Source: Escherichia phage Penshu1
Direction: 5' to 3' (one strand)
DNA length: 39,263 nt
Sequence record: MK903281.1
Positions within the stretch are counted from its first letter, which is position 1, and each line of letters begins with the position of its first letter. The notes beneath the pieces are model-generated. The model made no database searches, was not told where the DNA came from, and saw only the letters and a program-made list of their open reading frames with translations. This document shows positions 1 through 39,263 of this stretch, piece by piece. The position numbers and the translations under genes are program-made.

Positions 1-190
1 TCTCACAGTTCAAGAACCTCAAGTCTCCCCCATAGGCCATCTTTCAGTCCAGACCAAAGGCCCTACCCAGTCTATCATAAGGTTGGACCGATGGTCAAGA
101 CTTCAGGTCAACGATAGGTTGAGGCTATGGCTTAGGGAAGGACGATAGGTTGGGACTATGGGTCTGCCTCTGAGTCTCTATCTGTATAGT
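1..190. repeat. Left genome end, probable terminal-repeat region (right boundary approximate)
   Basis: Window begins TCTCACAG, the same octamer that begins the T7 genome, followed by GT-rich sequence resembling the end of the T7 terminal repeat. The right-end copy is not in the window, so the length cannot be fixed. Confidence 0.35.
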
Positions 191-2763: not shown

Positions 2764-5445
2764 ATGAGCGTCATCTCTATTGACAAACACGACTTCTCTG
2801 ATGTGTCTAACGCCATTGAGCCGTTTAACCTGCTGGCTGACCACTATGGGCAAGACCTTGCAGTCAAACAGCTTCAGCTTGAGCATGAGGCATACACTGA
2901 AGGCGAGCGACGTTTCATCAAGAACCTTGAGCGACAGACTGAGCGTGGGGAACTGGCAGACAATCAGGTCGCCAAGCCTCTTATGCAGACTCTGGTCCCT
3001 AAGATTGCGCAAGCCGTTAAGGAGTGGCATGAAGGTCAAGACGGGAAGCTGTCAACCTCTCGTCCTAGCGTAGCTTTCACCATGTTGAGCACCGAAGAGA
3101 AGGTTGTTAAAGACCGCTCCCTACGCATCTCCTGCGAGTCTGCTGCGGTTATCATACTGAAGGTCATACTCTCCAAGCTGGTCAAGCCTGAAGGGATACC
3201 GATTACACCGATGGCCTCCGCGATAGGTCGCACACTTGAGGACGAAATCCGCTTCGGGCGCATCCGTGACAAGGAGCAGGAACACTTCAAGAAGGCGATA
3301 GCTGAGAACCTGAACAAGCGAGCCGGGGCATCCTACAAGAAGGCCTACATGCAAGCGGTTGAGACATCCATGCTGGAGCAGGGTCAACTGGAAGATGCGT
3401 GGGGGACTTGGAGTCCGACCGAGGCGGTACACGTTGGAATCAAGACGCTTGAGATTGTCATCCAGTCAACACAACTGGTCGAGCTTAAGCGCTACGGTGC
3501 TGGCAATGCAGCGGCTGACGTAGAGATGGTCCACCTGTCAGACTTTTGGGTAAAGAAGATGGCACAACGAGGATTTAGCCTTGCGGGCATCTCTCCAGTC
3601 TACCAGCCTTGCGTCGTTCCACCTAAGCCGTGGACCGGTGTCGTAGGCGGTGGGTACTGGGCCAAAGGTCGCAGACCACTACCACTGATTCGCTTAGGGT
3701 CTAAGTCTGCGGTGGCACGTTATGAAGACGTGTACATGCCTGAAGTCTATGACGCTGTGAATATCGTCCAGAATACGCCTTGGAAAGTGAACAAGAAGGT
3801 TCTGGACGTGGTGAACATGGTAGAGAAGCTGAACAACACGCCTATTGATGACATTCCTCAGATGGAGCCGCTGAAGCCTGAAGACTATGCGGGTGAGACT
3901 GAAGAGGAACTCAAGGCATGGAAGAAAGCTGCTGCTGGTATCTATCGCCGCGAGAAGGCCCGACAGTCACGCAGATTGTCACTTAGCTTTATCGTTAACC
4001 AAGCGAACAAGTTCTCTCAGTTCAAGGCCATCTGGTTCCCGTACAACATGGACTGGCGCGGTCGCGTCTACGCTGTGCCGATGTTCAACCCTCAGGGTAA
4101 CGACATGCAGAAGGGTCTCCTAACTCTGGCAGTCGGTAAGCCTATTGGTGCCAATGGTTTCAAATGGCTGAAGGTCCACGGTGCAAACTGTGCGGGTATT
4201 GATAAAGTAACCTTCGAGGAGCGCATCAAGTGGGTGGAAGACAACCACGACAACATAATGGCCACTGCTAAGGCACCGATGGACAGCATTGAGTGGTGGG
4301 GTAAGTTAGACTCTCCGTTCTGCTTCCTAGCGTTCTGCTTCGAGTATGCTGGCGTAATGCATCACGGATTGTCTTACTCCTGCTCGCTGCCGATAGCGTT
4401 CGATGGGTCCTGCTCTGGGATTCAGCACTTCAGCGCGATGCTTCGCGACCACATCGGTGGACATGCGGTAAACCTGACGCCTTCCGGTAAGGTCCAAGAC
4501 ATCTACCGCATCGTGTCTGACCGCATTGAGGAAGAGCTTAAAGTCCTGCTGGTTAACGGCACGGACAACGAGATGGTAACTCACGAGGACAAGAAAACTG
4601 GTGAGATTACCGAACGTCTCAAGCTGGGGACACGAGAGCTGGCCCGGCAGTGGCTGACTTACGGTATGTCACGCAAGGTGACTAAGCGTTCGGTCATGAC
4701 TCTGGCCTACGGGTCGAAAGAGTACGGCTTTGCAGACCAAGTGTACGAGGACATCGTGATGTCAGCGATTGACTCAGGGTCTGGCGCTATGTTCACTGAG
4801 CCAAGACAAGCGTCTCGCTTCATGGCTAAGATGATTTGGGAAGCTGTGAGTGTGACTGTAGTTGCTGCGGTTGACGCAATGAAGTGGCTTCAAGGTGCTG
4901 CCAAGCTGCTGGCGGCTGAAGTGAAGGACAAGAAGACTGGAGAAATCCTGAAGCCTTGCCTTCCGGTACACTGGGTCACACCTGACGGTTTCCCGGTCTG
5001 GCAGGAATACCGCAAGAAGGATACCACTCGTCTGAACCTGATGTTCTTAGGGTCCTTCAACCTTCAACCTACGGTCAACAAGGGCACGAAGAAGGAGCTT
5101 GACAAGCACAAGCAGGAGTCAGGCATTAGCCCGAACTTCGTCCACTCACAGGATGGAAGCCACCTACGCAAGACCGTAGTTCACACGCACCGCAAGTATG
5201 GCGTGATGTCATTCGCAGTGATTCACGATAGCTTCGGGACTATCCCGGCTGACGCTGAGTATCTGTTCCGTGGTGTCCGTGAAACGATGGTCGAGACCTA
5301 CCGCGACAACGATGTGCTGCTTGACTTCTATGAGCAGTTTGAATACCAGCTTCATGAGAGCCAGCGCGACAAGTTGCCTGAGCTTCCGAAGAAAGGTAAA
5401 CTGAATATCGAAGACATTCTGTCTTCAGACTTTGCATTCGCTTAA
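2764..5445 (+). CDS. Single-subunit DNA-directed RNA polymerase (T7 gene 1 homologue), 893 aa
   Basis: DGSCSGIQHFSAMLRD, IHDSFGTIPADA and C-terminal ...DFAFA match T7 RNAP signature segments; size matches the 883-aa T7 enzyme. Confidence 0.97.
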   Translation: MSVISIDKHDFSDVSNAIEPFNLLADHYGQDLAVKQLQLEHEAYTEGERRFIKNLERQTERGELADNQVAKPLMQTLVPKIAQAVKEWHEGQDGKLSTSRPSVAFTMLSTEEKVVKDRSLRISCESAAVIILKVILSKLVKPEGIPITPMASAIGRTLEDEIRFGRIRDKEQEHFKKAIAENLNKRAGASYKKAYMQAVETSMLEQGQLEDAWGTWSPTEAVHVGIKTLEIVIQSTQLVELKRYGAGNAAADVEMVHLSDFWVKKMAQRGFSLAGISPVYQPCVVPPKPWTGVVGGGYWAKGRRPLPLIRLGSKSAVARYEDVYMPEVYDAVNIVQNTPWKVNKKVLDVVNMVEKLNNTPIDDIPQMEPLKPEDYAGETEEELKAWKKAAAGIYRREKARQSRRLSLSFIVNQANKFSQFKAIWFPYNMDWRGRVYAVPMFNPQGNDMQKGLLTLAVGKPIGANGFKWLKVHGANCAGIDKVTFEERIKWVEDNHDNIMATAKAPMDSIEWWGKLDSPFCFLAFCFEYAGVMHHGLSYSCSLPIAFDGSCSGIQHFSAMLRDHIGGHAVNLTPSGKVQDIYRIVSDRIEEELKVLLVNGTDNEMVTHEDKKTGEITERLKLGTRELARQWLTYGMSRKVTKRSVMTLAYGSKEYGFADQVYEDIVMSAIDSGSGAMFTEPRQASRFMAKMIWEAVSVTVVAAVDAMKWLQGAAKLLAAEVKDKKTGEILKPCLPVHWVTPDGFPVWQEYRKKDTTRLNLMFLGSFNLQPTVNKGTKKELDKHKQESGISPNFVHSQDGSHLRKTVVHTHRKYGVMSFAVIHDSFGTIPADAEYLFRGVRETMVETYRDNDVLLDFYEQFEYQLHESQRDKLPELPKKGKLNIEDILSSDFAFA

Positions 5446-6290: not shown

Positions 6291-7325
6291 ATGACAACTA
6301 TTAAAACCAACCCGCACCGCGCTGTAGATTACTCTGAGTCTGGCATTAAGAAGGCACTGGAAGCAGCCGGGTCTCTGGAAGCTGAAGTGAAGTATGACGG
6401 TGTGCGTTTAAACCTCATGGTCCTGCGTGAAGGTGAGACCTACTGGCTGAGCCGTGAGTCTAAACCTCTTCCAGCCTTGGAGTGGATGAACTCTGAGTTA
6501 GGTAATGCGTGGACCCAAGCTGACTGGCGATGGTTCCTGCGTCAAGCTGGCTACGAAGGCGTGGGCTTGATGATTGATGGCGAGGTCATGGTCAAAGGCG
6601 TGGACTTCAATACCTCCTCAGGCCTCATCCGAACAAAATGGCTCAAGCCTAGCAACGAGGAGTTCGCTGAATGTTATCCGGGCCGTGGCAAGAAGGTCCC
6701 GTTCTGGGTAGCCCGGTCACGACTTAAGGTTGTTGTCTACGGTGTCGTTGATATGCCGACCATAGCCGACCCAAAAGCCGAAGGTCCTATCCATAGCGTC
6801 ACACGCCTGAAGGCCGAAGCTATCGTCCCTCTCCTCCAGAAATACTTCCCGGAAATCGACTGGGTTCTGTCTGAGTCACACACGGTCTATGACCTTGAGT
6901 CGCTCAACTCCCTGTACGAAGAGAAGCGTCTGGAAGGACACGAGGGTCTGGTAGTCAAGGACCCGCTTGGTAAGTACAAGCGTGGCAAGAAGTCTGGCAT
7001 GTGGAAGATGAAGCCTGAGGAGACCATCGACGGGACTGTGTGTGGCCTAGTGTGGGGGACTCCTGGTAAGGCTAACGAGGGCAAGGTGATTGGCTTTGAG
7101 GTACTCTTAGAGGACGGCATGGTGGTTAACGCCTGCGGTCTGACTGAATCTCAGAAGGACGAGCTCACTGCTGAGGTTAAACGTCAGGAAGACGAAGAGG
7201 TTAATCCCTACGAAGGCTGGCAGGTTGAAGTCCTCTTTATGGAGCGATTCCCTGACGGCTCATTGCGTCACCCTAGCTTCAAGTGCTGGCGAGGGACGGA
7301 AGATGACCCGACCATTAAGAGCTAA
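6291..7325 (+). CDS. ATP-dependent DNA ligase (T7 gene 1.3 homologue), 344 aa
   Basis: Start moved to ATG 6291 (MTTIKTNPH..., GGAGA RBS), matching the T7 ligase N-terminus; adenylation motif KYDGVR; C-terminal SLRHPSF...RGTED as in T7. Confidence 0.9.
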   Translation: MTTIKTNPHRAVDYSESGIKKALEAAGSLEAEVKYDGVRLNLMVLREGETYWLSRESKPLPALEWMNSELGNAWTQADWRWFLRQAGYEGVGLMIDGEVMVKGVDFNTSSGLIRTKWLKPSNEEFAECYPGRGKKVPFWVARSRLKVVVYGVVDMPTIADPKAEGPIHSVTRLKAEAIVPLLQKYFPEIDWVLSESHTVYDLESLNSLYEEKRLEGHEGLVVKDPLGKYKRGKKSGMWKMKPEETIDGTVCGLVWGTPGKANEGKVIGFEVLLEDGMVVNACGLTESQKDELTAEVKRQEDEEVNPYEGWQVEVLFMERFPDGSLRHPSFKCWRGTEDDPTIKS

Positions 7326-32927: not shown

Positions 32928-32945
32928 ACTATCACTATAGGAAAC
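32924..32945 (+). promoter_or_regulatory. Phage RNAP promoter (phi17-like)
   Basis: CTAAACTATCACTATAGGAAAC, +1 G at 32940, overlapping the gene 16 stop codon. Confidence 0.75.
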
Positions 32946-32991
32946 GGGAGGCGCTACCATAGGTCTCCCTTTAAATCACAAAGGAGGCATA

Positions 32992-35733
32992 ATGTCCACG
33001 ATTACACAATTCCCTTCAGGCAACACTCAGCACAGGATTGAGTTCGACTATCTAGCCAGACCATTTGTTGTTGTAACTCTGGTTAATAGCTCTAACCCTA
33101 CCCTGAACCATGTGCTGGAAGCGGGTCGAGATTACCGATTCCTTAATCCAACTATGATTGAAATATTGGCTGACCAATCAGGTTTCGACATCGTTCGTAT
33201 TCACCGTCAGACTGGAACTGACTTAGTGGTAGACTTCCGCGATGGCTCGGTGCTGACAGCTAATGACCTGACCAATGCAGAGCTTCAGGCTATCCATATT
33301 GCAGAAGAAGGTCGAGACCAAACGGTTGACTTAGCGAAGGAATATGCCGATGCTGCTGGTATCTCTGCTGGTAACGCTAAGGATAGCGAGAACGAAGCAC
33401 GACGTATCGCTGAGAGTATCAAGACTGCTGGTCTGATGGGTTACATTACTCGTCGCTCCTTCGAGAAAGGCTTCAACATTACCGCATGGAACGAGGCCCT
33501 GCTGTGGGAAGCTGATGGGAACTACTACCGCTGGGATGGAACATTACCTAAGAACGTGCCTGTGGGCTCTACACCTGAGGCCACTGGTGGAGTTGGTAAA
33601 GGTAAGTGGCTTTCGGTCGGAGACGCAACGTTGCGCACTGAGATGCTTCGTGGTCGCTTCAAGTTCGAGGGAGCTGAGTCTGTCTACTATGTCCCGAACA
33701 TCAACTTCAACACTTCGGTAGATAACCGAGCCGCTGCTTATGCGTTTGCCAGTAAGATTTACATCCCTCGTGATGTGACCATCCGTGTGAACCTGCTGCC
33801 AGACGACGATGTTCGTAAGTTTGTAGGTGAGGGTAAACTCATTGTCAAGAACCAGTTCTATGGAGGTGACATGCTGTTTGACGTAGAGAAGGCGACAAAT
33901 GGTAATGGACGCTCGGTCAAGGATGTACTGATGAGCGCTTACAGTCGTCAGGCCTACGGAGTGGCTGACGTTGGTATCGTTGGCGACTCTATCACCGATG
34001 GTGCGTGGGGTAAACAGAACTGGGCGTCCCCACCTCTTACCCCAGAACGTGACCTTCAGGCTCCTATTGATTATGATCACAGTCTGTCTGGTGGTTCACA
34101 CTCATGGTGCGCGCACTGGGAATACCTGATGAACGCTGTTCAGTCACGCTTCTCCGCCGAGGCTATCTTCAAGATTAAGAACGCCTCTCTGTCTGGTGCT
34201 AGGCTGAGTGACGGCTGGGGCTACCGTAACTTCGACCGTGGGTTCTTCGGTAATATCCGCTATGGTGCAAAAGCTCCGAACATCTGCATTCTGGCTATGG
34301 GCTGGAACGACAGCAGCGCTAACAGCGATACTTACCGCGACCAGATTGACATGTTCGTCCGTAAGGCGTGGGGATATGGTTGCACCGTTGGTATCGTGAC
34401 TGTAAATGACAACGACCCGCACCGCATGGGCTTCGAGGCAGACACAAAGCGTCAGATGTGCAATCGTCTTGGAATCGACTACTTCAACCTAGGTCCTGAC
34501 CTGACGGAAATCAGTAACAAGACCATGCATGATATGGAGTGGTATTACACCAAGAAAGACCCAGCGTGGGACACAACGCACCCTCAGGAGCTTGGACAGA
34601 TGGTAATGGGAAACGCAATGTTCATGCAGACAGTAGGCGAGAAGTATGTACGCCGGGTCAAATCAGGGGATGTAATTACTCCTGCTGTGGTTGAAAGCTA
34701 TTGGGATGCAGTCACTTACCCATCGCACAACCACCTGAAGCCAGCCTATGGTAAGACTGGTGGTACTCCAGTTCTGGACTCGCTGAAGTATCTTCCTATG
34801 GCATCTACTGCTGGTGAGAACGTAACGTTCACCACTTTAGTCTGGTGCGAGGAGAACGATATGTCCCTGACGGTCTTTGAGCCGTGGACTGGTAACGGCA
34901 AGGTAGGGGATTATAACCACGTCAAGGTTATCAACCCAGCGGGCAAGGACTTGGACATTAATGACCCAGTTTATGGAGCCAGAAACACCACGGTAAACAA
35001 TGAGCGCATCCTGCGTCAGGGGAAGTTAGCCTCTAGCTGGCTTGGTGGTGGTAAGAGCTTAACTACCTACGTAGGCCGACTGCGTAAGGGCTTAAACCAG
35101 ATTAACATCGTTAATGGTGGTCAGCTTCCCACTGTTTGGTATCCAGCCCTGAAGTTTGGCACGTCCAACAATGACGGCATCCACATCCCGATGACACGAC
35201 GGGGTATTGGTGTCTCCGCTCTTCCTACAGCACTATACGCAGATGGTAACAAGTTCGAAGACTACATGCTTAGCAACGTTATGTCTGGACGTAAAGGCTC
35301 CCTCACGGCTGACGCTTATGCTCAGCAGGGTACGCTGGTGGGTCGAGTATACGTTAAGTCCGGACTGAAGAAGTCAGTATACTTGGCGTTGAACTGGAAT
35401 CCAATTATGAACACAGCGGTCCTCCTTGGCGTGGCCTCTGATGGTCGACTGGCGGTGGGTACGTGGAATGGTGGTGAGCCTACTGACTGGAAGGTCCTGA
35501 CGTCTGCATATCAGGGCGACTTCACGGACAAAGGTTTTACAGTGTATCACTACACCCAGGTCTCCGATGGTTCTCATCTTTTTACTCTGACTACTGATGA
35601 CGGAACTGTTAAAGACGCTAACGTGTTTACGACACTTACTGCTACATCCGGTGTCGTCGGGCTCCTGAACCGAGTAGGAGGCTCGAAGATTGTGGAAGTA
35701 GAGGCGAACTACACGCTGACTAGCGTAGGGTAA
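32992..35733 (+). CDS. Tail fibre / tailspike with gp17-type N-terminal anchor and an internal SGNH (GDSL) esterase domain, 913 aa
   Basis: N-terminus ([14 protein letters not shown]...DYRF...[16 protein letters not shown]...IHIAEEGRD) matches the T7 gp17 tail-attachment domain. SGNH blocks: GDSITDG (Ser codon 33988-33990), GWND (34300-34311) and DTTHP (34570-34584). Confidence 0.85.
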
Positions 35734-35775
35734 CAACTTTGGGTCAAGGACGACCCGCTTTAAACTGGAGGTTTT

Positions 35776-35970
35776 ATGCTTGAGTTAGACTTCAAGAATG
35801 AGGTCCTTAAAGCCTCTCCTATAGTCGGGACCGCTGCGGCTGATGGTGCCAGTCGGTTCTTCTTCGGACTCACACTGAACGAATGGTTCTACGTTGCAGC
35901 TATCGCGTACACCGTTGTCCAGATTGGTGTGCTAGTCTACAAAACGATTAAAGGAGGTGGTAAAACATGA
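35776..35970 (+). CDS. Holin (T7 gene 17.5 homologue), 64 aa
   Basis: MLELDFKNEVLKASPIVGTAAADGASRFFFGLTLNEWFYVAAIAYTVVQIG is near-identical to T7 gp17.5. Confidence 0.85.
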   Translation: MLELDFKNEVLKASPIVGTAAADGASRFFFGLTLNEWFYVAAIAYTVVQIGVLVYKTIKGGGKT

Positions 35971-36804: not shown

Positions 36805-38571
36805 ATGTCTAAGAAAACACCCGCTGAAAGACAGGCAGAAATGACCCAAAGGATGAGGGACGACTTCGTGTTCTTCATCTTCGTTCTCTGGAAAGCACTA
36901 AGTCTTCCGGTTCCAACCCGCTGCCAGATAGATATGTGCAAGAAGCTGGCTGCTGGGGATAATCGCCGCTTCATCCTTCAGGCGTTCCGTGGTATTGGCA
37001 AGTCGTTTTTGACATGTGGCTTTGTGGTCTGGAAGCTATGGAACAACCCAGACTTGAAGTTCATGATTGTGTCGGCCTCAAAGGAACGAGCCGATGCGAA
37101 CTCCATCTTCATTAAGCGAATCATCGACCTCATGCCTCAGCTTCAGGAACTCAAACCTAAGCAGGGACAACGAGATGCGGTTATCAGCTTTGACGTTGGG
37201 CCAGCCAAGCCAGACCACTCACCTTCGGTTAAGTCCGTTGGTATCACTGGTCAGTTGACTGGTAGTCGTGCGGACATCCTGATTGCCGATGACGTAGAGG
37301 TCCCCGGTAACTCATCGACTCAAGCTGCAAGGGACCGACTGTCAGAGCTTGTGAAAGAATTCGACGCTATCCTGAAGCCGGGAGGTACAATCATCTATCT
37401 AGGCACTCCTCAGAACGAGATGACCCTGTACCGTGAGTTGGAAGGTCGTGGGTATACCACTACTATCTGGCCAGCTCGTTATCCACGCGATAAGAAGGAC
37501 TGGCAGTCTTACGGCGACCGTCTGGCTCCTATGCTTCAGGCAGAGCTGGAAGAGGACCCTGAGTCCTTCTACTGGCGTCCGACTGATGAAGTACGCTTCG
37601 ATGATACGGACCTGAAGGAACGTGAGCTGTCCTACGGTAAAGCTGGATTCGCTCTACAGTTCATGCTTAACCCTAACCTGAGTGATGCTGAGAAGTACCC
37701 TCTGAAGCTCCGTGACCTTATCGTAGCCGACTTGGACCCAGAGTCCAGCCCAATGGTCTACCAATGGTTGCCGAACCCTCAGAACAAGCGTGAGGACGTT
37801 CCTAATGTTGGACTCATGGGTGATTCATACCACACGTATCAGACTGTAGGTTCTGCCTTTAGTTCGTACACCCAGAAGATTCTGGTCATAGACCCTAGTG
37901 GTCGTGGTAAGGATGAGACGGGCTATGCGGTACTGTATCAGCTCAACGGCTACATCTTCGTGATGGAAGCTGGTGGTATGCGTGGTGGTTATGAAGACTC
38001 TACGCTGGAAGCTCTGGCTAAGATTGGTCGTAAGTGGAAGGTTAACGAATACGTCATTGAGGGTAACTTCGGTGATGGCATGTACCTTGAGCTATTCAAG
38101 CCTGTAGCGGCCCGTATCCATCCTGCTGCTGTAACTGAAGTTAAGAGTAAGGGTCAGAAAGAACTCCGCATCTGTGACGTTCTGGAGCCTATCATGGGGT
38201 CTCACCGACTTATCGTTAACGCTGCTGCTATCGTCCAAGACTACCAGTCAGCCTCTGATAAGGATGGTGTTCGTAACCCTATCTACTCTCTCTTCTACCA
38301 GATGACCCGTATCTCTCGTGAACGTGGCGCCTTGGCACACGATGACCGACTTGATGCGCTGGCTATCGGTGTACAGTTCTTCGTTGAGTCTATGGCTAAG
38401 GATGCCAACAAAGGAGAACGTGAAGTCACTGAGGAGTGGCTGGAGGAACAGATGGAGAACCCACGGAAAGGCTTCGAGTCCATCCACACTGAGTTCTGGG
38501 ACAATGGGGTCCGGGTAACTCACGATACGGACGACGAGCTTGGACTAGGGTCCTACGTTACGTTCCACTAG
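36805..38571 (+). CDS. Terminase large subunit (T7 gene 19 homologue), 588 aa
   Basis: Collinear with T7 gp19; ATPase and nuclease segments ([38 protein letters not shown]). Confidence 0.95.
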
Positions 38572-39026: not shown

Positions 39027-39185
39027 CGCAATCATGGTAACGATTCATGAGCGGAAGACCTAAGGTCAGTTCATAGCTAACGCTACTCTACTGACCTTAG
39101 CTACTGTAGTCAAGGACTTTAGGTAACACCTTAATAGAAGCTCACTTAGGGTCATCCTACTTATTGGTCTATCCTAGTGTCGCCT

Positions 39186-39226
39186 GACCTACGGTCCTTG
39201 ACCTACAGTGGCTGTGGCCTACAGTA
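39186..39226. repeat. Right-end CCTAC(A/G)GT short direct repeats (three copies)
   Basis: CCTACGGT at 39188, CCTACAGT at 39202 and 39217; same motif as the left-end array, as expected for repeats flanking T7-like terminal repeats. Confidence 0.6.
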
Positions 39227-39263
39227 GTGACGATGAGTTTTGGACCAAAAGTTTGAGACCACA

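Follow-up and report, generated by a model that had tools for sequence, protein, structure and literature searches.

The tailspike encoded in the 39,263-nucleotide stretch of DNA analysed here (the window) is a new allele in an already known family of esterase tailspikes, one with a solved structure and experimentally characterised members, namely that of gp63.1 of phage G7C, and its residues 155–913 are a direct homologue of the G7C protein. We propose, with a probability of roughly 0.85, that this Kayfunavirus tailspike consists of a T7-type anchor joined to a complete deacetylase cassette of the G7C gp63.1 type, the two having been assembled by cassette recombination. A preliminary description of the same DNA had recognised a gp17-type anchor followed by an SGNH esterase, an arrangement borne out by the order of Pfam domains, by the match to the G7C crystal structure and by a fold search; its reading of function was right in kind, whereas its reading of the module as functionally novel was wrong.

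The genome in the window is of the Kayfunavirus type (T7-like, of the K1F/EcoDS1 group) and complete or nearly so, with DNA approximately 93% identical to that of phages pO91, YZ1, and Mt1B1_P3; its ends showed no exact terminal repeat. The tailspike gene starts with an ATG and occupies the position expected of a T7-like phage, between a gene for a gp16-like internal virion protein of 1296 residues and the holin gene, an order that is the same in phage Pisces, and it is the only receptor-binding protein gene evident among the open reading frames of the window. It has its own phage promoter, the consensus of which, ACTATCACTATAGG, is present in ten copies in the window, all on the plus strand, where 0.05 would be expected by chance; a scan for sigma-70 promoters and terminators around the gene revealed nothing beyond chance. 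The features of the gene and its product are as follows.

32928..32945, plus strand: phage RNA-polymerase promoter of the tailspike gene, ACTATCACTATAGGAAAC, a copy of the consensus
approximately 32981–32987, plus strand: ribosome-binding site AAGGAGG, 3′ of the promoter, as read from the sequence
32992..35733, plus strand: tailspike gene (gene 17 position), 913 aa, from the open reading frame listing
33019..33333 (aa 10–114), plus strand: Phage_T7_tail (PF03906), the T7 gp17-type tail-attachment domain, E = 1.3e-15
33454..33624 (aa 155–211), plus strand: Tail_spike_N (PF18668), TSP1/gp66-type, E = 2.7e-18
33691..33885 (aa 234–298), plus strand: Gp63_3rd_G7C (PF21562), domain 3 of G7C gp63.1, E = 3e-28
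33949..34686 (approximately aa 320–565), plus strand: SGNH esterase domain, from homology to domain 4 of G7C gp63.1 and from the fold
aa 329–450, plus strand: match to Lipase_GDSL (PF00657), 26.2 bits with a cut-off of 23.6
33982–34002 (aa 331–337), plus strand: SGNH block I motif, GDSITDG, with the nucleophile Ser333
aa 397–402, plus strand: block II motif, with N397 and G402
34300–34311 (aa 437–440), plus strand: block III motif, GWND, with Asn439
34570–34584 (aa 527–531), plus strand: block V motif, DTTHP, with Asp527 and His530
34702..35160 (aa 571–723), plus strand: G7C_GBD (PF21988), galactose-binding-domain-like, of the domain 5 type, E = 2e-38
35173..35715 (aa 728–908), plus strand: G7C_C (PF22245), G7C-type C-terminal domain, E = 4e-34
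35562..35733, plus strand: 3′-terminal 57 codons, which provide the zone of homology on the right-hand side of cassette exchange and survive in other Kayfunavirus-type phages as decayed remnants 3′ of unrelated tailspike genes, from nucleotide matches

The Pfam search thus places six domains in order along the protein, the first of which is shared with T7. The N-terminal ~150 residues had been described as gp17-like and the remainder as unrelated to the T7 fibre, and both statements stand: in addition to the Phage_T7_tail match, the T7 gp17 structures 7boz and 8dsp align to residues 6–115 only, and sequence matching against the structure database found no gp17 similarity past residue 115, either to the T7 shaft or to its C-terminal tip domain. 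The anchor region (residues 1–150) includes a helical stretch of low model confidence. The spike in the tail structure of phage E1004 (9vvr) aligns over residues 1–218, its modelled N-terminal parts being 92% identical to the window tailspike, and the presence of 18 spike chains in that structure supports the usual arrangement of six trimers. Between the anchor and the enzyme lies Tail_spike_N, which the preliminary description missed and which is common to Kayfunavirus spikes and to spikes of the G7C/CBA120 type.

From Tail_spike_N onwards the relationship is to G7C. The structure of gp63.1 (PDB 4QNL) aligns to residues 155–913 with an E value of 3.7e-251, the tailspike matches PHROG 21878 (E = 2e-215), and the two proteins are 51% identical over ~760 residues, sharing all four G7C-specific Pfam domains. 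The domains also follow one another in the same order in both: Tail_spike_N, domain 3, SGNH, galactose-binding-like, and C-terminal. Precedents had previously been sought among a few unrelated tailspikes, but the protein is itself a member of the gp63.1 family. Identity to G7C falls along the cassette, from 74% in domain 3 and 66% in the SGNH domain to 46% in the galactose-binding-like domain and 40% in the C-terminal domain. A search with generic esterase models, proposed earlier as a check, gave a divided answer: Lipase_GDSL scores above its cut-off yet covers only residues 329–450, whereas Lipase_GDSL_2 (PF13472) over residues 330–536 reaches 20.5 bits and falls short of its cut-off of 32.9. 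From such models alone an SGNH assignment would be marginal; the gp63.1 match and the fold search nonetheless secure the domain.

What this family does is known from gp63.1 (Prokhorov et al. 2017, Mol Microbiol 105:385), as that work is reported by citing papers (PMC10743462; PMC13123978; PMC12625404): it is an SGNH esterase that cleaves an O-acetyl group from the O-antigen of E. coli 4s, which is O22-like, and leaves the polysaccharide chain uncut, this deacetylation is essential for G7C infection, and E. coli mutants without O-acetylation resist the phage. Esterase or deacetylase activity has also been measured for the related spikes of phages Moo19 and B2 (PMC11654681) and Possum (PMC9569702). 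For the window tailspike, the present analysis shows the homology, the order of the domains, the fold, the retention of the catalytic residues, and the limits of the recombined segment. Its enzymatic activity, the identity of its substrate, its processivity, and the need for it in infection are predicted by analogy with these proteins, and deacetylation of a surface polysaccharide during adsorption, as proposed in the preliminary description, is the same function as that reported for gp63.1. The gp17-type N-terminus (residues 1–150) would dock spike trimers on the tail, and Tail_spike_N (residues 155–211) would join this anchor to the cassette of domain 3, SGNH esterase, galactose-binding-like, and C-terminal domains. 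By homology, the spike would bind to a host of the Escherichia type at a surface polysaccharide bearing O-acetyl groups, most likely the O-antigen, and hydrolyse the acetyl ester through a triad of Ser333, Asp527, and His530, the oxyanion hole being made up of Gly402 and Asn439; the sugar backbone would stay intact, and deacetylation would let the virion penetrate the polysaccharide and reach the outer membrane. The tailspike determines host range, and among resistant hosts we expect to see, besides rough mutants, those that no longer O-acetylate, as has been reported for G7C, a prediction that is useful for choosing or engineering phages.

The substrate is the part of this proposal that varies most readily. 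The C-terminal domain (residues 728–908) is the most divergent part of the protein and probably sets specificity, and because the distal domains are so much less similar to those of G7C than the enzyme is, the substrate may be something other than an O22-like O-antigen, or indeed than any O-antigen. No DNA homologue or prophage copy of the cassette that might hint at a serotype was present in 5,426 complete E. coli genomes. One alternative is therefore an active esterase of the same kind that acts on the K antigen of a capsule or on some other acetylated exopolysaccharide. Kayfunaviruses do include capsule-specific phages such as K1F, and phages of Acinetobacter and Klebsiella have SGNH receptor-binding proteins that act on capsules, which together with the divergence of the distal domains lends this some plausibility; however, the characterised member of the family, that of G7C, acts on O-antigen and nothing in this analysis points to capsule, so that we regard a capsular substrate as unlikely.

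The second alternative is that the SGNH domain is catalytically dead, retaining its fold for binding only in a lectin-like role. The predicted activity is, after all, drawn from homology, and inactive enzyme folds are retained in some phage receptor-binding proteins. The catalytic residues argue otherwise. The preliminary description had noted GDSITDG, GWND, and DTTHP in that order in the 913-residue reading frame, and each lies where it was placed; block II (N397...G402) had been overlooked, and all four SGNH blocks (I, II, III, and V) are present in order. An ordered GDS...GxND...DxxH pattern arises in only 53 of 20,000 shuffles of the tailspike protein, a minor consideration beside the homology. 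In a four-way alignment made here, Ser333, Gly402, Asn439, Asp527, and His530 correspond without gaps to S276, G345, N382, D470, and H473 of G7C gp63.1, with identical residues at each catalytic position, and the neighbourhoods of the four blocks are nearly identical among the proteins aligned, G7C included. Across 31 homologues, with identities as low as 33%, Ser333, Asn439, Asp440, Asp527, and His530 are invariant and Gly402 is retained in 28, the pattern expected if selection acts for catalysis, and one that argues for a working enzyme and not a relic fold; a dead enzyme is thus highly improbable. Arg478, the counterpart of G7C R421, is kept in 24 of the 31; in G7C, the R421P substitution is reported to alter host recognition (preprint 10.1101/542787).

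An AlphaFold model built on the same 31 homologues has a mean pLDDT of 80.7, rising to ~90 from residue 240 on, through the enzyme and distal domains, and is low only in the helical stretch of the anchor, which needs the trimer. Comparison with known SGNH tailspikes had been suggested earlier, and the best Foldseek match of the model is indeed 4QNL (TMq 0.78, TMt 0.83, rmsd 3.4 Å over 766 columns, 51% identity). Further matches are to SGNH esterases that stand free of any spike, namely CEX (6hh9), 3rjt, 4rsh, Axe2 (4jko), TAP (1u8u), and RGAE (1deo), with TMt values of 0.5–0.74 and a probability of 1.00 for 3rjt, 4rsh, 4jko, 1u8u, and 1deo, as expected of the three-layer α/β/α fold with a parallel five-stranded sheet that characterises the superfamily. 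Ser333, Asp527, and His530 are predicted to be juxtaposed in space, given that the motifs align with the crystal structure 4QNL without gaps. A lipase or lysophospholipase acting on outer-membrane lipids or the acyl chains of lipid A, instead of on a glycan acetyl ester, might be suggested by the name GDSL lipase/acylhydrolase of the matching Pfam families and by the presence of TAP/lysophospholipase L1 among the fold matches, but the nearest relative, by a wide margin, deacetylates a glycan, the best fold matches other than phage spikes are carbohydrate esterases (CEX, Axe2, and RGAE), and carbohydrate-binding-like modules flank the SGNH domain, leaving this alternative, too, highly improbable.

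The preferred reading, an anchor and a deacetylase cassette joined by recombination, can be examined at the level of DNA. Homology to Kayfunaviruses with other receptor-binding domains (IMEP24 and PH1061) ends at nucleotides 33612 and 33637, at approximately residues 207–215, and restarts at 35562, 172 nucleotides before the stop codon. Homology to the Phapecoctavirus SKA64 begins at 33582, and taken together these limits place the left crossover zone at ~33582–33637, at the end of Tail_spike_N, in agreement with the end-of-anchor motif conserved across Kayfuna-, Gamaleya- and Kutterviruses (PMC10408124). In the proposed exchange the left crossover falls where Tail_spike_N ends, and the right one either at the 3′ terminus of the gene or in the intergenic region before the holin gene.

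The 3′ end of the gene has a distribution of its own. Its last ~172 nucleotides recur in 71 phage records at 80–88% identity, and the lengths of these remnants are nested (172, 159, 140, 125, 103, 71, and 66 nucleotides), nearly all with the same right end. Both IMEP24 and PH1061 have the copy 3′ of their own, unrelated tailspike gene, and frameshifts and stops interrupt it; these copies are fossils that cassette replacement has left of a window-type allele. We note also that the 3′ end of the window gene is nearer to these fossil copies than to the Pisces allele.

SKA64 (OM362897) is a 152-kb myovirus, and its tail spike (UKM17348.1) is 66% identical to the window tailspike over residues 109–907, with 98% identity in domain 3, although its N-terminus is G7C-style and lacks the T7 anchor. 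SKA64 and the window are 95.4% identical over 216 nucleotides (35716–35931 in the window), a match that spans the gene end, an intergenic hairpin (GGGTC-AAGGAC-GACCC), and the first ~52 codons of the holin gene, these codons being fused in SKA64 to unrelated sequence. The holin fragment in SKA64 indicates export of the cassette by a Kayfunavirus to a myovirus.

These scars admit a broader reading, which we offer tentatively and hold at a little under even odds. In a large share of the Kayfunavirus-type phages, the receptor-binding locus would once have been filled by the window allele or by a close relative of it, as the nested and decaying 3′ remnants in the 71 deposited genomes suggest; the last ~170 nucleotides and the conserved hairpin would have served as the right-hand landing pad for repeated replacement, and the cassette would have moved from podovirus to myovirus together with a holin fragment. 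Separately, the distal domains may recognise an O-acetylated glycan that is new as a phage receptor. The recombination scars represent a concrete, datable case of receptor-binding cassette swaps within the Kayfunaviruses and of export to unrelated phages.

The cassette is found behind several kinds of N-terminus. The combination of T7 anchor and G7C cassette forms four protein clusters, mostly metagenomic, that are 95, 76, 73, and 62% identical to the window tailspike, the third of these being the Pisces cluster. The closest relative, on ENA/Logan contigs of ~41 kb (P0001), is 95% identical over the full 913 residues and 92.6% identical in the DNA of the surrounding locus; the contig is colinear with the window, has an additional HNH gene preceding that for the terminase, and is metagenomic, unannotated, and uncultured. 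The G7C cassette also occurs behind N-termini that have Tail_spike_N only (G7C and SKA64), behind P22 Head_binding anchors (P0015 and P0016), and behind a tail-collar fibre N-terminus (P0018). Conversely, Kayfunavirus anchors also carry unrelated esterases, as in P0054 (Lipase_GDSL_2) and P0057 (SASA), and because the Kayfunavirus-anchored GDSL spike of P0054 has no sequence relation to the window cassette, esterase spikes have entered the Kayfunaviruses from more than one source.

Comparison with known systems shows why the fusion, proposed in the preliminary description as the most likely functionally novel module, is not novel. The Kayfunavirus Pisces (MK903277) encodes a tail spike (QEG09597.1) of 913 residues, at the same gene position and with the same anchor-plus-cassette architecture, and its GenBank annotation already records an SGNH hydrolase domain. 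This is the deposited protein nearest to the window tailspike, and the two spikes are 73% identical overall, 98% in domain 3, 71% in the galactose-binding-like domain, 50% in the C-terminal domain, and 44% in the last 57 residues; the Pisces spike thus represents another allele, probably with a specificity of its own, and the divergence of sequence suggests that the target glycan of the window tailspike probably differs from those of both G7C and Pisces. Tailspikes with a T7 N-terminal domain and a G7C-like SGNH part were also described in the Pectobacterium Studiervirinae Q19, PP47, and PP81 and attributed to horizontal transfer (PMC7693777), and the deacetylase activity of the spike of the Autographiviridae phage PP99 was shown by experiment (PMC6989608). 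All four share with the window tailspike a design in which a T7-like anchor carries an SGNH deacetylase resembling that of G7C; they are, however, much more distant, with a G7C likeness seen by HHpred only (PMC7693777, PMC6989608), and belong to phages of other hosts. With these precedents and the related esterases noted above (PMC9569702, PMC11654681), the tailspike brings no new mechanism.

The clearest difference from G7C itself concerns attachment. G7C is an N4-like phage of the Schitoviridae and the window phage a Kayfunavirus; gp63.1 is attached to the G7C virion by way of another spike, gp66, the two making up a branched complex, and a second spike gene is not seen among the open reading frames of the window. 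Branched attachment through gp66 is a trait of the G7C virion and not of the cassette, which also occurs behind the P22 Head_binding and tail-collar anchors noted above. In the window phage the cassette directly follows an anchor of the T7 gp17 type in one polypeptide, and this fusion constitutes the sole receptor-binding protein.

Esterase spikes entered Kayfunavirus on several separate occasions, since two metagenomic spikes, P0054 and P0057, carry other types of esterase on the same Kayfunavirus anchor (approximately 87% identity over the first 220 aa). Behind this anchor, P0054 has a canonical Lipase_GDSL_2 domain whose sequence is unrelated to that of the G7C gp63.1-type cassette present in the window, while P0057 has a SASA sialate-O-acetylesterase domain.

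The final ~172 nt of the esterase tailspike gene (window 35562-35733) are matched in 71 phage records at 80-88% identity, for the most part in Kayfunavirus-type phages whose hosts are E. coli, Salmonella Typhi or Klebsiella. These matches are nested, ranging from 172 down to 66 nt, with a right end that is common to nearly all of them. In the two genomes examined, IMEP24 and PH1061, the copy lies 3′ of an unrelated tailspike gene and is interrupted by frameshifts and stop codons. The 3′-end copies are fossil tailspike 3′ ends, left behind when the cassette was replaced. The features concerned, together with the hairpin that follows the gene, are:

L004 (IMEP24 locus) 3846-4017, copy of the tailspike 3′ end
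L005 (PH1061 locus) 3685-3855, copy of the tailspike 3′ end
Window 35741-35756, small hairpin GGGTC-AAGGAC-GACCC, after the stop codon of the tailspike gene and ahead of the holin ribosome-binding site

In SKA64 (OM362897), a Phapecoctavirus with a 152-kb myovirus genome, 216 nt (L003, the SKA64 locus, 6424-6639) are 95.4% identical to window 35716-35931. This segment takes in the 3′ terminus of the tailspike gene, the hairpin in the intergenic region and, from the Kayfunavirus class II holin gene, the first ~52 codons; in SKA64 the holin fragment is joined to unrelated sequence, giving a 114-aa 'hypothetical protein'. This suggests that a myovirus acquired the esterase cassette from a podovirus and that the holin fragment hitch-hiked along.

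Within the SGNH domain itself there is a family-specific insertion that may contribute to the substrate-binding site; all 31 homologues keep its residues Y361, H363, G367, G368, S369 and W372 without exception. The window has ten copies of ACTATCACTATAGG, the promoter consensus of the phage RNA polymerase (0.05 expected by chance), every copy on the + strand and one of them immediately upstream of the tailspike gene.

Tailspike aa 340-375 (nt ~34009-34116), insertion between SGNH blocks I and II
Window 2677, 5754, 7395, 8263, 16342, 19551, 20531, 25258, 32928 and 38671, + strand, ACTATCACTATAGG promoter copies

No exact direct terminal repeat was found between window 1-80 and 39184-39263, even though the length and gene set resemble those of a whole T7-like genome. 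Compared with the physical genome ends, the sequence of the window may have been trimmed or permuted.

The closest relative, L006, an ENA contig encoding a 95%-identical spike, has a gene that the window does not have, the terminase gene coming next in the window, at 36805:

L006 6784-7167, HNH_3 endonuclease gene (127 aa), flanked by the Rz-like and large terminase genes

The window shares the conserved GGGTC-AAGGAC-GACCC hairpin with Pisces, IMEP24, PH1061 and SKA64, whereas G7C has instead another GC-rich terminator repeat after each of its two spike genes.
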